DNA of 55,032 nucleotides from an uncultured Candidatus Saccharibacteria bacterium (GTDB lineage: Bacteria > Patescibacteriota > Doudnabacteria > UBA920), in assembly GCA_964561085.1 (NCBI GenBank), contig CAZLNP010000002.1:1-55032 (forward strand), in the 5' to 3' direction. Position numbers and translations under genes: made by a program. The notes under the pieces were generated by a model. The model searched no databases. It was given only the letters and a program-made list of their open reading frames with translations, and had not been told where the DNA came from. Shown here piece after piece: positions 3,094 through 25,217 of the stretch. Numbering within the stretch: position 1 is the stretch's first letter; every line of letters starts with the position of its first letter.

Positions 3094-3912
3094 ATGTTTA
3101 ACTCCAACAGAGTCGAGACAATTAAAAAAGATATTCAAACCAGCACGCTTCTTTCCGATAGTGAAAAAAGTGACTGGTTAAGTTTGCTTGAGTTGATGAA
3201 CGACAAGCAGCTAGGGGAGTTGGAAGAAATTCTGTCAGCTAGTCCTCCTCAGACTTCAAAGACAGCGCAGCCTCAACAACCTACAACTCCTGCGCCAGTT
3301 AAAACTCCTCCAGTCCAAACCATGCCTCCTTTGAGCCATATTGCCAATGTACCATCAGGTGTAGATATGAATAGGTCTCAGATTGCTAATCCCATTAGGC
3401 CTCAGGCACCAGCTCCAACCCCATCTCCAGCTCCAATTTCTGCGAGGCCAACACCTTCACCAACGCTGTCTAATATGCCGCCTCGAAGCGCGCCTCCAAA
3501 ACCACAGCCATCTGCGTCTGCAAACAATCCGGTTAGCCCCGCCCTTGCACCAAGCGCACCGACTCCTGCCCAGGCAGTAACTGCACCTGCATCAACACCA
3601 GCCCCAGCAACTCAACAATCACAATCTGTGTTCGCAATTAGACAGGTAGAGGACTTGCAGCAAATGAGTGTAGACACTATTCGCAATTTTAGCTTCCAAT
3701 CGATTTTTAATGTAGTTAGAAGTGCTATTCAAGAAAACGGATATTTCGCAATTTTACAGCTAGTAGAATCTAGTCCGTTGTTCTCCAGCTATCTAAGTTC
3801 TGGCAATAAACGGCTTGGTGGCACCAGTTCTGCTACTGAACCAGAACTAACCCAAGCTGAATTCGAATTTATGACAGACCTACTGCGCAACATGCGGTTT
3901 AATCGCTGGTAG
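3094..3912 (+). CDS. Hypothetical protein: small N- and C-terminal helical domains joined by a Pro/Ala/Ser/Thr-rich linker
   Basis: 272-aa ORF starting 1 nt after the previous stop (TAAAATG). Confidence 0.75.
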   Translation: MFNSNRVETIKKDIQTSTLLSDSEKSDWLSLLELMNDKQLGELEEILSASPPQTSKTAQPQQPTTPAPVKTPPVQTMPPLSHIANVPSGVDMNRSQIANPIRPQAPAPTPSPAPISARPTPSPTLSNMPPRSAPPKPQPSASANNPVSPALAPSAPTPAQAVTAPASTPAPATQQSQSVFAIRQVEDLQQMSVDTIRNFSFQSIFNVVRSAIQENGYFAILQLVESSPLFSSYLSSGNKRLGGTSSATEPELTQAEFEFMTDLLRNMRFNRW

Positions 3913-22527: not shown

Positions 22528-22556
22528 TTGACACTCTATTTATAGAGGAATATAAT
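22528..22556 (+). promoter_or_regulatory. Perfect-consensus sigma70 promoter
   Basis: TTGACA-17 nt-TATAAT; the spacer contains the palindrome CTCTAT-tt-ATAGAG. Confidence 0.88.
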
Positions 22557-22565
22557 TAATCACAT

Positions 22566-22658
22566 ATGAAATCTATCTGGAACAACATTTCCTGCACAAT
22601 CACTAAGGCAATTCGCATTGCCTTTTTACTGTTGGAAAATTCCAGATTGAGAGCATAG
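22566..22658 (+). CDS. Putative 30-aa leader peptide MKSIWNNISCTITKAIRIAFLLLENSRLRA
   Basis: ATG 9 nt after the -10 box (near-leaderless), TAG at 22656-22658; overlaps alternative RNA pairings. Below the ORF-track size cutoff. Confidence 0.55.
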   Translation: MKSIWNNISCTITKAIRIAFLLLENSRLRA

Positions 22659-22678
22659 ATTTTTTCTTAGAAAATTTT

Positions 22679-22718
22679 ACTCGCTATCTGGAATTCACCA
22701 GGTAGCGAGTTTTGTTTT
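22679..22718 (+). terminator. Attenuator-type intrinsic terminator in the 5' leader
   Basis: ACTCGCTATCTGG-aattca-CCAGGTAGCGAGT (13 bp, one G.U) followed by TTTGTTTT. Confidence 0.8.
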
Positions 22719-22763
22719 GTAGGAATAGGTAGCTAGTCAACATTTTAGGAGGATGTGAATAGG

Positions 22764-22979
22764 ATGAGCAATTCGCTAAAGAGTGCTTCGAATTTGGGAC
22801 CTGACGGTCTCGTGTTACAACATAATTTTGTCCCTGATCCCATTAGGGATTTTAAGGGGAACAAACGGTTTCGTATTTCTTGCACTAATGAGGGCTGTAA
22901 AAAAAAGCATGTCCCTGTTGAAGTAAGAGGTTTGAGTAAGATATGCAAAGGCGGTGCCAAGATGGTGGCCGCTGCGTAA
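22764..22979 (+). CDS. Small basic Cys-containing hypothetical protein, 71 aa
   Basis: AGGAGG at 22747-22752, ATG at 22764 (the track's GTG 22755 is too close to the SD); own promoter and terminator. Confidence 0.65.
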   Translation: MSNSLKSASNLGPDGLVLQHNFVPDPIRDFKGNKRFRISCTNEGCKKKHVPVEVRGLSKICKGGAKMVAAA

Positions 22980-23005
22980 AAAATGTCTTATTCAAAAATA
23001 ATTTT

Positions 23006-23044
23006 AGGGTGCGTCATGAATTATCATGATCGCCCTTTCTTTTT
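23006..23044 (+). terminator. Terminator after the 71-aa gene
   Basis: AGGG-t-GCG-TCATGA-atta-TCATGA-t-CGC-CCT followed by a T-rich run. Confidence 0.6.
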
Positions 23045-23066
23045 CTCTATATATAAATATAATCAT

Positions 23067-23095
23067 TTGGCAGGAGGCCAAATTTTCTCTATAAT
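23067..23095 (+). promoter_or_regulatory. Sigma70 promoter for leaderless gatCAB
   Basis: TTGGCA-17-TATAAT, 6 nt before ATG 23102. Confidence 0.75.
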
Positions 23096-23101
23096 TAACC
23101 T

Positions 23102-23383
23102 ATGTTAAGCGAAGAAGAAGTCAGAAAAGTAGCCGAAATGGCTCGAATTGCATTGACCGATGAAGAAGTGGCGAAGTTCCAGAAGGATCTTTCGTCTGTT
23201 TTGGATTATGTTGATGTTTTAAAAGAAGTTGATACAGAAGGCTTGGAGATTGTTTCTTCGGTAACAGGCTTAGAAAATGTTGATCGTCCTGACGTTGCAA
23301 AGGTTATAGACTATCAGGAAGAGATTATGGCGAACGCTCCGGAACGTAAAGAAAGATATTACAAAGTTAAATCTATTTTATAA
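23102..23383 (+). CDS. gatC: Asp/Glu-tRNA amidotransferase subunit C
   Basis: EVRKVAEMARIAL...L..VDT; first gene of gatCAB. Confidence 0.93.
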   Translation: MLSEEEVRKVAEMARIALTDEEVAKFQKDLSSVLDYVDVLKEVDTEGLEIVSSVTGLENVDRPDVAKVIDYQEEIMANAPERKERYYKVKSIL

Positions 23384-23389
23384 ACCGTT

Positions 23390-24877
23390 ATGAGTGTTAA
23401 TTGGGAACAACTAGAATTACATGAACTTCGCGAGAAGTTAGATGCTAAAGAGATTTCGTCAGTAGAACTGACGAAGTATTTTTTGGCGCGCACAAAAGAA
23501 CAAAATCCTGAGTTGAATGCGTTCATTACCATTGCTGAAGAAGAAGCTTTGAAGCAGGCTGCTGAAGCTGATGAATACATGGCTGCTGGTGGTGGCGAGA
23601 ATCCTGCACTTTGTGGAATTCCATTTGCCGCAAAAGATTTGTTCATGACTCGCGGAATTCTAACAACAGCCGCATCAAAAATTTTAAGCAACTACATTCC
23701 TCCTTACGACGCAACTGTAATTGAAAAGTTGAAAGAACAAAAAGCAGTTTTGATTGGTAAAACTAACATGGATCAGTTCGCGCACGGTAGCAGTGGCGAA
23801 ACCAGCTTTTACGGTGCAACAAAAAACCCTTGGGATGTTTCCAGAATGCCTGGCGGTTCTTCTAGTGGAAGTGCAGCTGCGGTTGCAGCAGGCTTAGCGC
23901 CGTGGGCTTTAGCAACTGAAACTGGTGGTTCAATTCGTCAGCCTGCTTCTTTAACTGGTGTGTCTGGATGGAAACCAACTTATGGACGAGTTTCTAGGTA
24001 TGGTGCGGCTGCGATGTCATCCAGTTTAGATTCAATGGGTGCAATGGCACGCAGTGTGAAAGATTTGGCGATGATTGCGGAAGTGCTTTCCGGACAAGAT
24101 GAAAAGGATTCTACAACAGGGCCCGTGGAAGTGCCTGAATATTCAAAACAACTGAACTCAAGTTTAGTCGGTGTTAAGGTTGGCGTACCAAAAGAATATT
24201 TTGTCGATGGAATGGAAGAAGATGTTAAGGCCCGCATTCTAGAAGCGATTGAAGTTTTGCGTGCGCAAGGCGCAGAAATTATTGATGTTAGCTTGCCAAA
24301 CACAAAGTATGGTTCGATGGTTTACGCAATTGTTTGTCCAAGCGAAGTATCTTCTAACCTAGCTCGTTATGACGGCATCCGTTATGGCCACTCTACATCT
24401 GAAGGTAAAAGTTTGTTGGAAGTTTATGAAAAGTCTCGCGCAGAAGGTTTTGGTGATGAAGCAAAGCGCCGCATTATGACTGGTACGTATGTTTTATCTG
24501 CCGGTTACTACGATGCGTATTACAAAAAAGCGCAGCGAGTGCGTCGTGTAATTATGAATGAGTTCGAAGAAATTTTTAAACAAGTTGATGTACTAGTAGC
24601 GCCAAGTTCGCCGAACGTTGCTTTACCTCTAGGCAAAGCTGCTAATGATCCGTTATTCGGATACATCGCTGACCAATTAAACATTCCAGGCTCCTTGGCA
24701 GGGACGCCAGGACTTTCGATTCCTTGTGGTTTTGCAAAACCAAGTGACGGAGGAGCTATTGAAATGCCAGTAGGCCTGCAAATCATTGGTCCACAATGGG
24801 GCGAGCAAAAAGTCTTTAATGTTGGGTTTGCGTATCAGTCTGTGACTGATTGGCACACGAAATTAGCAAATGAATAA
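23390..24877 (+). CDS. gatA: Asp/Glu-tRNA amidotransferase subunit A
   Basis: Amidase signature GKTNMDQFA.GSS, PGGSSSGS, ETGGSIRQPA, RYDGIRYG. Confidence 0.96.
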   Translation: MSVNWEQLELHELREKLDAKEISSVELTKYFLARTKEQNPELNAFITIAEEEALKQAAEADEYMAAGGGENPALCGIPFAAKDLFMTRGILTTAASKILSNYIPPYDATVIEKLKEQKAVLIGKTNMDQFAHGSSGETSFYGATKNPWDVSRMPGGSSSGSAAAVAAGLAPWALATETGGSIRQPASLTGVSGWKPTYGRVSRYGAAAMSSSLDSMGAMARSVKDLAMIAEVLSGQDEKDSTTGPVEVPEYSKQLNSSLVGVKVGVPKEYFVDGMEEDVKARILEAIEVLRAQGAEIIDVSLPNTKYGSMVYAIVCPSEVSSNLARYDGIRYGHSTSEGKSLLEVYEKSRAEGFGDEAKRRIMTGTYVLSAGYYDAYYKKAQRVRRVIMNEFEEIFKQVDVLVAPSSPNVALPLGKAANDPLFGYIADQLNIPGSLAGTPGLSIPCGFAKPSDGGAIEMPVGLQIIGPQWGEQKVFNVGFAYQSVTDWHTKLANE

Positions 24878-25217
24878 ATTCATTAAAACAGTTAATTGGA
24901 TTAAAGTAGTAATCTATGGTTTCGGGTTTATTATTTTATGGTTTTTGTCTGATTCGTTAGGTAATTATATAGACGAAAAATATTTTCCAAACCATTCACT
25001 AATAATGGAAAACAAAATGAGTTTATTGACTTATCCGATTTGGTTAGTTCTTACTTCAATTTTGTATTTTTTATTTCCAATATCAACATTAGATGCGATT
25101 TCAAAGCTAAATGAATCAAGGCCATTGTACAGCCGATTGGCTTATTGCATACTAGCTTTAATTATTTTATCAATATTAACTTTCATTATCATTTCAGTAA
25201 TTTATTCATATCAATAA
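24870..25217 (+). CDS. AT-rich hypothetical membrane protein (about 3 TM) inserted between gatA and gatB
   Basis: 115-aa ORF overlapping the gatA stop by 8 nt and ending 1 nt before gatB; visibly more AT-rich than its flanks. Confidence 0.6.
   Translation: MNKFIKTVNWIKVVIYGFGFIILWFLSDSLGNYIDEKYFPNHSLIMENKMSLLTYPIWLVLTSILYFLFPISTLDAISKLNESRPLYSRLAYCILALIILSILTFIIISVIYSYQ

Follow-up and report, generated by a model that had tools for sequence, protein, structure and literature searches.

The classical leaders of amino-acid operons are represented by trpL, hisL, leuL, thrL and ilvL of Escherichia coli and by the Rfam models Trp_leader, His_leader, Leu_leader and Thr_leader. Here we analyze an element that resembles them, located at positions 22,528 to 22,763 of a 55,032-nucleotide stretch of DNA from an uncultured Candidatus Saccharibacteria bacterium (contig CAZLNP010000002.1, assembly GCA_964561085.1, forward strand; the whole stretch is hereafter called the window). 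According to our analysis, this element is likely to be a ribosome-dependent transcription attenuator of Candidatus Saccharibacteria; its mechanism is that of classical leader-peptide attenuation, and the family to which it belongs was previously unannotated. Like the classical leaders, it combines a short leader open reading frame (ORF), putatively translated in this case, with mutually exclusive 1:2, 2:3 and 3:4 hairpins, an intrinsic terminator preceding the first structural gene, and a hairpin that is probably a pause site. Unlike them, it lacks a stretch of codons for any single amino acid, its ORF is leaderless and about twice as long (30–35 codons), its start codon is predicted to pair with the last codon, its cargo is a swappable orphan cassette rather than a biosynthetic operon or an aminoacyl-tRNA gene, and no sequence or model match connects it to them. 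Assignment to the class of amino-acid-operon leaders was rejected, since neither a codon run nor a matching pathway nor an Rfam match was found.

Among described systems, the leaderless leader ORFs of Actinobacteria and the inhibitor-responsive bmrB and mef/mel leaders come closest to it. In Corynebacterium glutamicum, the ilvBNC leader ORF is leaderless and is described by a three-hairpin model set by the ribosome (PMC11857589, PMC10272879); in mycobacteria, leaderless polycysteine small ORFs have been reported (bioRxiv 10.1101/834739). The Saccharibacteria element shares with these leaders the position of the ORF at the 5′ end of the transcript and the lack of a Shine–Dalgarno sequence. However, the actinobacterial leaders control the pathway that corresponds to their runs of Ile/Val/Leu or Cys codons, whereas the element described here has neither such a run nor a corresponding pathway and occurs in another phylum (Patescibacteria, or candidate phyla radiation). 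The bmrB-bmrCD leader of Bacillus subtilis (PMC4191407) and the mef(E)/mel leader of Streptococcus pneumoniae (PMC4335068) are ribosome-mediated attenuators that answer translation inhibitors. They are similar to our element in having a longer peptide without codon runs and in the antitermination at an intrinsic terminator upon slowing early in the ORF, which is predicted here. They differ in that they control efflux or ribosome-protection genes by means of upstream ORFs (uORFs) preceded by Shine–Dalgarno sites, while the Saccharibacteria element has a leaderless ORF and a small orphan cargo. The class of antibiotic-inducible attenuators (erm, bmrB, mef/mel, vmlR) was not accepted for the element, because its cargo is unrelated to known resistance families. 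No description of a leader-peptide attenuator from Saccharibacteria came up in full-text literature searches, and gene regulation in this group and in the wider candidate phyla radiation is almost unknown.

Architecture of the Element

The element consists of a promoter, a leader ORF and an RNA that can form three mutually exclusive hairpins. Its parts are as follows.

22528–22556, plus strand: sigma-70-type promoter, TTGACA (22528–22533), 17-nucleotide (nt) spacer and TATAAT (22551–22556), 12 of 12 matches
22566–22658, plus strand: leader ORF of 30 codons, MKSIWNNISCTITKAIRIAFLLLENSRLRA, from ATG at 22566 to TAG at 22656–22658, without a Shine–Dalgarno sequence
22565–22582, plus strand: segment 1, including the start codon and CTATCTGGAA (22573–22582), which repeats part of the terminator 5′ arm in direct orientation
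22605–22629, plus strand: central hairpin AAGGCAAT-TCGC-ATTGCCTT followed by TTTTT, within the ORF (−8.3 kcal/mol, z-score −3.1)
22633–22662, plus strand: segment 2 (last part of the ORF with its stop codon, plus the next four bases), whose partner is either segment 1 or the terminator 5′ arm
22657–22677, plus strand: small A/U spacer hairpin capping the antiterminator helix in the fold of 22633–22700
22679–22691, plus strand: segment 3, the terminator 5′ arm ACTCGCTATCTGG, part of the 13-bp stem
22698–22720, plus strand: segment 4, the 3′ arm CCAGGTAGCGAGT (22698–22710) and the U-run TTTTGTTTTG (22711–22720)

An earlier note on this DNA, made from the letters of the sequence, had described the promoter TTGACA-17-TATAAT, the near-leaderless ORF, a repeat occurring twice, and the 1:2, 2:3 and 3:4 pairings together with a 13-bp terminator. 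Each of these statements holds, and the promoter, the ORF, the three pairings and the terminator lie where the note had placed them. The repeat CTATCTGGAA is present in exactly two copies, at 22573–22582 and 22684–22693. The arms of the 1:2 pairing are 22565–22582 and 22640–22657, with the addition of AAATCTAT/ATAGATTT, and those of the 2:3 pairing are 22633–22662 and 22671–22700, which include the perfect 10-bp helix AATTCCAGAT/ATCTGGAATT. Within segment 2, CCAGATTGAGAG mimics the terminator 3′ arm (CCAGGTAGCGAG). The 3:4 inverted repeat extends over 22664–22691 and 22698–22725, and within it the terminator is formed by the 13-bp stem (22679–22710) followed by TTTTGTTTTG.

Judging by the predicted energetics, this architecture is not due to chance. 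The fold of the 170-nt leader has an energy of −59.5 kcal/mol (z-score −7.8), and none of 200 shuffled sequences was as good. In the window, the antiterminator (−21.6 kcal/mol, z-score −5.2) and the terminator (−22.0 kcal/mol, z-score −7.05) are nearly isoenergetic, which is what a switch needs. Scanning of the 55-kb window revealed no further module of the same design.

A second copy of the terminator 3′ arm is located 27 nt downstream of the first one (AGGTAGCTAGT at 22700–22710 and AGGTAGCGAGT at 22727–22737), and its first part is common to the window and to L028, a strain-level relative introduced below. It is followed by CAACATTT (22738–22745), and the same letters follow segment 1 (22583–22590). 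In the read-through RNA, this second copy might offer segment 3 yet another partner; alternatively, it may be a chance resemblance.

Occurrence and Conservation in Saccharibacteria

The element was found in 12 further Saccharibacteria loci, all of them between lemA and gatC, upstream of the latter, in metagenome-assembled genomes (MAGs) of Saccharibacteria. Eight of these were nhmmer matches (L002, L004, L008, L009, L012, L013, L015, and L016), and a covariance model built from the latter added four divergent loci (L017, L018, L019, and L020). The 13 loci thus comprise nine sequences of group A (the window and the eight nhmmer loci) and the four divergent ones. A pattern scan of metagenomes yielded only two more loci, a duplicate of L009 and the strain-level relative L028. 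When a profile of the leader peptide was compared with 1.84 billion predicted proteins, only two called ORFs were obtained, of which one was new (MSQTWHQICAVIIKANLFVFLYFAQAKTRA); this indicates that the family is essentially unannotated.

The leader ORF is absent from 8 of 21 loci of the Saccharibacteria/Patescibacteria type, and no such leader was found in seven of them; in L005 and L007 lemA directly abuts gatC. The locus L003, whose GatC is 86% identical to that of the window, represents a natural deletion variant: the promoter and a terminator-like hairpin are kept (3470–3545), the leader ORF is gone, and the promoter runs into a 110-amino-acid (aa) cargo ORF.

Both promoter boxes, TTGACA and TATAAT, are retained in all nine group-A homologues. 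In the window the ATG of the leader lies 9 nt 3′ of the −10 box, and throughout group A (9/9) it is separated from TATAAT by 6–9 nt and lacks a Shine–Dalgarno sequence. At such a distance the RNA should be leaderless, starting at the AUG or next to it (a leader of at most 3 nt in the window). The layout of gatC, which is itself probably leaderless, supports leaderless initiation as a normal mode in the window organism.

All 13 loci keep the frame free of stops over 30–35 codons (30, 30, 32, 33, 31, 32, 32, 32, and 32 codons in group A; 32, 32, 34, and 35 in the divergent loci), even across indels of 3, 6 and 9 nt, all of which are multiples of three. In nearly all group-A sequences the +1 and +2 frames are interrupted by one to three stops; in L004, frame +1 is open. 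The translation of the leader ORF, as suggested by this strong comparative evidence, is probable.

The terminated structure, which was scored as the pairing of the start codon with the CAU of the last codon together with the 1:2 helix, the central hairpin and the terminator, has 95.6% of its cells paired in the alignment of nine sequences. Six pairs show a compensatory change, a result equaled by 0 of 500 shuffles, and slid controls gave 30–49%; four pairs with compensatory changes belong to the terminator stem. When folded individually, all nine group-A leaders form the terminated structure at full length. Truncation ahead of the terminator 3′ arm, combined with masking of nt 1–30, gives the 2:3 antiterminator in each of them, and a cap hairpin equivalent to the A/U spacer hairpin of the window is predicted for most homologues. 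The two competing duplexes occupy the same 11–19 nt of segment 2. Against dinucleotide shuffles of this segment, the 1:2 duplex is significant in every leader (z-scores between −1.8 and −3.8) and the 2:3 duplex in most of them (z-scores between about 0 and −4.4). The stem and the U-run of the central hairpin are constant in 9/9 group-A members, while its loop is variable, and changes in strain variants keep the pairing as G–U.

In the divergent lineages, segment 1 is a copy of the lineage's own terminator 5′ arm (CTCGCTACC in L017 and L020, TTGCTACTC in L018, and ATAGCTACTC in L019), and segment 2 is a copy of its own terminator 3′ arm (GGGTAGC, AGAGTAGCGA and GAAGTAGC, respectively). Judging by these sequences, both segments appear to have changed together with the terminator arms, so that the logic was kept and the sequences were not. 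The conservation of the uORF and of the pairings in relatives, which the earlier note had proposed as a check, is therefore found as an open frame and three competing helices in 13 loci; together with the leaderless start in the nine group-A members, this supports the attenuation logic of the trp/erm type that the same note had assigned to the element.

The same data bear on the possibility that the leader is controlled by a ligand or a protein, as a riboswitch or a protein-binding leader, so that the bound ligand or protein would stabilize 1:2, free segment 3 and cause termination, with the long 1:2 hairpin and its conserved apical hairpin as the sensor and with an incidental ORF. A 3′ strand of helix P1 that alternates with the terminator 5′ arm is typical of OFF-riboswitches, the conserved-looking residues of the peptide all coincide with RNA helices, and ATTTCC is conserved in L008 even though the frame is shifted there. 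On the other hand, an incidental ORF does not account for a frame that is open from the 5′-terminal AUG to a conserved stop in all 13 loci, with indels in multiples of three and stops in the other frames, nor for a spacing between promoter and AUG fixed at the leaderless distance. Moreover, the apical and internal loops vary too much to provide a conserved pocket, and autoregulation by the cargo is excluded, because the cargo differs between strains. A search with cmscan against all Rfam families (E ≤ 10) gave only spurious matches to microRNA hairpins. Membership in the T-box, riboswitch and Rfam cis-leader classes was dropped for want of a match to a curated model and because of the variable loops and internal loops among the homologues. 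We consider a factor- or ligand-dependent attenuator improbable.

Predicted Switch and Its Direction

For the ribosome-dependent attenuator, the direction of switching was predicted by partition-function calculations on transcripts cut at the terminator loop, in which different ribosome positions were masked in the 13 leaders. With a ribosome on nt 1–30, segment 2 holds the terminator 5′ arm with a probability of 0.59–0.91 in 13 of 13 leaders, and with a ribosome on nt 31–60 the probability of the antiterminator is 0.37–0.91. A ribosome at the stop codon brings it to about 0 in 11 of 13 leaders (0.37–0.39 in the other two). The robust prediction of this model is that a ribosome keeping pace as far as the stop codon would lead to termination, and a delayed ribosome to read-through. 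The earlier note had supposed that stalling in the first codons causes antitermination; in the model this part stands, except that the responsive stretch is wider and covers about codons 1–19. Its statement that either full translation or none terminates agrees with the predictions for full translation; for a leader without a ribosome, the probability of the antiterminator varies from 0.06 to 0.90, and termination in this case is not a robust outcome.

Based on these results, we infer the following mechanism. The consensus promoter would give rise to an RNA that begins at the AUG of the 30-codon leader ORF or not more than 3 nt from it. In this RNA, segment 2 could pair with segment 1, including the start codon, or with segment 3 to form the antiterminator that is isoenergetic with 3:4. 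If the first ribosome keeps up with the polymerase, it would reach the stop codon and cover segment 2, the terminator would form, and transcription would stop about 60 nt past the ORF (OFF). If the ribosome is delayed anywhere before it has read about two thirds of the ORF, segment 1 would be masked or sterically unavailable, segment 2 would be free, and the antiterminator would form, allowing the polymerase to continue into the cargo gene, which has a Shine–Dalgarno site and lies 45 nt downstream (ON).

The central hairpin is a candidate for an RNA polymerase pause site or a weak first terminator. The simplest reading of this hairpin with its U5 is a pause site that synchronizes the polymerase and the ribosome: it probably pauses the polymerase inside the ORF and so lets the ribosome catch up. 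Once the ribosome has been released, the AUG would pair with the CAU of the last codon, and this pairing should prevent a new round of initiation on the terminated leader.

Several points weigh against the interpretation of the element as a ribosome-dependent attenuator. Since L003 lacks the ORF, the switch appears to be dispensable. Homologues number just 13, from about ten lineages, and all are found at one genomic position. No run of regulatory codons that would define the signal is seen in the leader sequences. In the model, the antiterminator is favored at equilibrium in many members also without a ribosome, so that termination in the absence of translation would need a kinetic 1:2 trap. 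Finally, in a MAFFT alignment the antiterminator columns are 71.9% paired, compared with 31–52% in slid controls, but their covariation is not above that of shuffles; column-wise covariation is absent because the register of the helix shifts between lineages. This is the weakest link of the argument, and the support for the antiterminator comes from the folds of individual sequences and from the divergent lineages.

Role of the Leader Peptide

The amino-acid sequence of the leader peptide shows no signs of selection. The pairwise differences at codon positions 1, 2 and 3 are 0.365, 0.402 and 0.430, and the synonymous share of single-base codon differences is 28%, compared with 23% expected without selection. 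The invariant residues K14-A15, F20-L21, R-A-stop and W5 overlap RNA helices or related elements (AAGGC/GCCUU, the U-run, GAGCAUA, and CUGG), and in L008 a frame shift changes the reading of the conserved ATTTCC. The peptide has a hydrophobic stretch of about nine residues, and codon periodicity is absent. These comparisons suggest that translation of the ORF matters and its product does not. A functional small protein and a long arrest motif were rejected for the absence of selection at the amino-acid level.

These data are difficult to reconcile with a stand-alone gene for a small protein or small RNA, in which the pairing of the 5′ and 3′ ends would stabilize the RNA or limit its translation, as in type I toxin mRNAs, and the downstream genes would be expressed by leakage. 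It is true that the consensus promoter and the strong terminator would yield an abundant RNA of about 150 nt, that the full-length fold hides the start codon, and that the peptide has a hydrophobic core, KAIRIAFLLL; but purifying selection at the amino-acid level is not seen, and this core is too short for a membrane helix. In addition, a plain terminator does not need the 2:3 complementarity, which is kept and changes together with the terminator in the divergent lineages, and the cargo ORFs have strong Shine–Dalgarno sites and no promoter of their own. The type I toxin and small-protein class was rejected on the basis of the synonymous share (0.28 versus 0.23 expected) and of the hydrophobic stretch of ~9 residues, and we regard a stand-alone gene as quite improbable.

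A nascent-peptide arrest sensor of the TnaC, ErmCL, SecM or SpeFL type, in which a motif would stall the ribosome on a small molecule or on an antibiotic of the actinobacterial host and thus cause antitermination, seems highly improbable, even though residues recur (W5-H6, I8, K14-A15, F20-L21, and R-A before the stop), Arg is written as AGA or CGA in group A, Ser switches between AGC and TCC in L017 versus L020, and leader-peptide attenuators are known to respond to antibiotics that target the ribosome (PMC4191407, PMC4335068), because synonymous and nonsynonymous rates are near neutral overall, the recurring residues coincide with RNA helices, group A and L017–L020 have no motifs in common, a stall at R-A-stop would mask segment 2 and favor termination instead of induction, and the cargo is not a resistance gene.

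Input Signal

The earlier note had named limitation of Trp or Asn, an antibiotic or nascent-peptide arrest as possible signals. The arrest loses ground because of the lack of amino-acid-level selection on the peptide. The leader contains a single TGG codon, which is CTG in L009 and is absent from L017–L020; TGG is kept where it occurs because it lies within the CUGG/CCAG helix. Trp sensing was rejected for these reasons, and limitation of Trp or Asn at the first codons is not supported, as no run of regulatory codons exists in the leaders and no single sensor codon is conserved among the 13 loci.

Some codons are nevertheless overrepresented. In codons 2–10 of ten lineages, Asn was observed 12 times versus 4.1 expected, and Trp, Cys, His and Gln were also enriched; in codons 11–20, Ile accounted for 20 of 100 codons versus 6.9 expected. 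The lineages counted are not independent in their phylogeny, and early codons are often rich in A in any case. Each of the 13 leaders has one or more Asn or Gln codons among codons 2–9. The input is most likely slow elongation caused by a shortage of charged tRNA in an amino-acid auxotroph, which would make the element a multivalent or general sensor of elongation speed. By analogy with bmrB-bmrCD (PMC4191407), translation inhibitors may be an alternative input.

A more specific scenario, which we offer tentatively and which is doubtful as a whole, is that of a general sensor of translation pace in an auxotrophic epibiont. One co-transcriptionally loaded ribosome would read the supply of charged tRNA, possibly that of the Asn- and Gln-tRNA made by the neighboring GatCAB, in view of the early Asn or Gln codons of all 13 leaders, and when the host stops feeding the epibiont, a horizontally exchangeable, strain-specific cassette of small hydrophilic proteins, possibly effectors of host interaction or stress, would be expressed. 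The terminated leader RNA, expected to be abundant because of the perfect promoter, could in this scenario also act in trans. If this were true, Saccharibacteria would hold a conserved "expression socket" for swapped orphan genes.

As judged from the sequences, reduced, host-dependent bacteria may use transcription switches that are read by the ribosome and built on leaderless mRNAs. The element offers a case in which one switch is held constant while the genes behind it change even between strains, a way to learn when these epibionts produce their many small orphan proteins, and a compact model of attenuation without runs of regulatory codons.

Cargo Cassette and Genomic Neighborhood

The element occupies a 650-bp gap between lemA and gatC, which contains or borders the following features.

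22452, minus strand: start of lemA (Pfam LemA, 1e-59)
22733–23030, plus strand: variable cargo cassette, with AGGAGG at 22749–22754 and a 71-aa basic orphan ORF at 22764–22979
23006–23046, plus strand: terminator hairpin and U-run of the cargo unit (−16.5 kcal/mol, z-score −5.1)
23067–23104, plus strand: gatCAB promoter TTGGCA-17-TATAAT (boxes at 23067–23095, 11 of 12 matches), with the gatC ATG at 23102, 6 nt past the −10 box
23102, plus strand: start of gatC (Pfam GatC, 8e-21)

In the window, 45 nt separate the U-run from the ATG at 22764, and this interval contains AGGAGG and no promoter match. The same arrangement is seen at every locus: the first ORF past the terminator is preceded by GGAGG, begins 30–45 nt after the U-run and has no promoter in between. 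Such a gap leaves no room for a second promoter, so the terminator and the cargo belong to the same transcription unit. The gatCAB genes were excluded as a regulated operon because of the cargo terminator and of gatC's own promoter at the leaderless distance; the gatCAB mRNA is probably leaderless. The sequences suggest that the switch is constant and the cargo exchangeable, and that gatCAB would be a neighbor and not a target; the earlier note had mentioned neither the strain-variable orphan cassette nor the separate gatCAB unit.

The 71-aa cargo protein has no homologue except itself in 5.8 billion protein clusters and belongs to no Pfam, PHROG or NCBIfam family. The other cargo proteins gave no family match either, with the exception of an EgtC-like class-II amidotransferase in L004. 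From species to species the cargo varies as a mosaic: it comprises between one and four small hydrophilic ORFs, which resemble each other only in patches. Among the ORFs between the leader and gatC in L008, L012, L013 and L016, several share the motif EIRTP-x-Y-x-EQ...GTD, and other cargo ORFs end in LF-x-(L)PGG-x-W or FEQGPAI; these ORFs form small, fast-evolving, locus-specific protein families without an assigned function.

An exchange of the cargo was observed between closely related strains. In L028 (reverse complement, 137–550) and in contigs of the metagenome runs X9 and X10, 298 bases (22733–23030) have given way to 414 unrelated bases with the coding sequence of an acidic protein of 114 aa, and the breakpoints lie just past the U-run of the attenuator and within the cargo terminator. 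The flanks of the exchanged part are similar: in L028 the leader is 99% identical and the gatC region 92%, and the X9 and X10 contigs have a leader of at least 99% identity together with a conserved gatC.

The GatC of the window is 100% identical to that on a contig of a Saccharibacteria MAG, and the 20 next-best loci also belong to Saccharibacteria/Patescibacteria. The runs that contain the window stretch are DNA metagenomes from wastewater, activated sludge, freshwater and sediment; a search of RNA runs gave none that contains it.

On the other side of the attenuator, a 1913-bp insertion/deletion polymorphism separates lemA and the promoter (22500/22512 in the window; 1497–3410 in L001). Its long form was seen in L001 and in contigs of the runs X9 and X10. 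The insert has its own TTGACA-type promoter and a 325-aa ORF without a family match, which is homologous to a 336-aa ORF of L004 placed behind the attenuator and adjoining the EgtC-like class-II glutamine amidotransferase. Farther downstream in the window, a 115-aa hydrophobic ORF is located between gatA and gatB (24870–25217).

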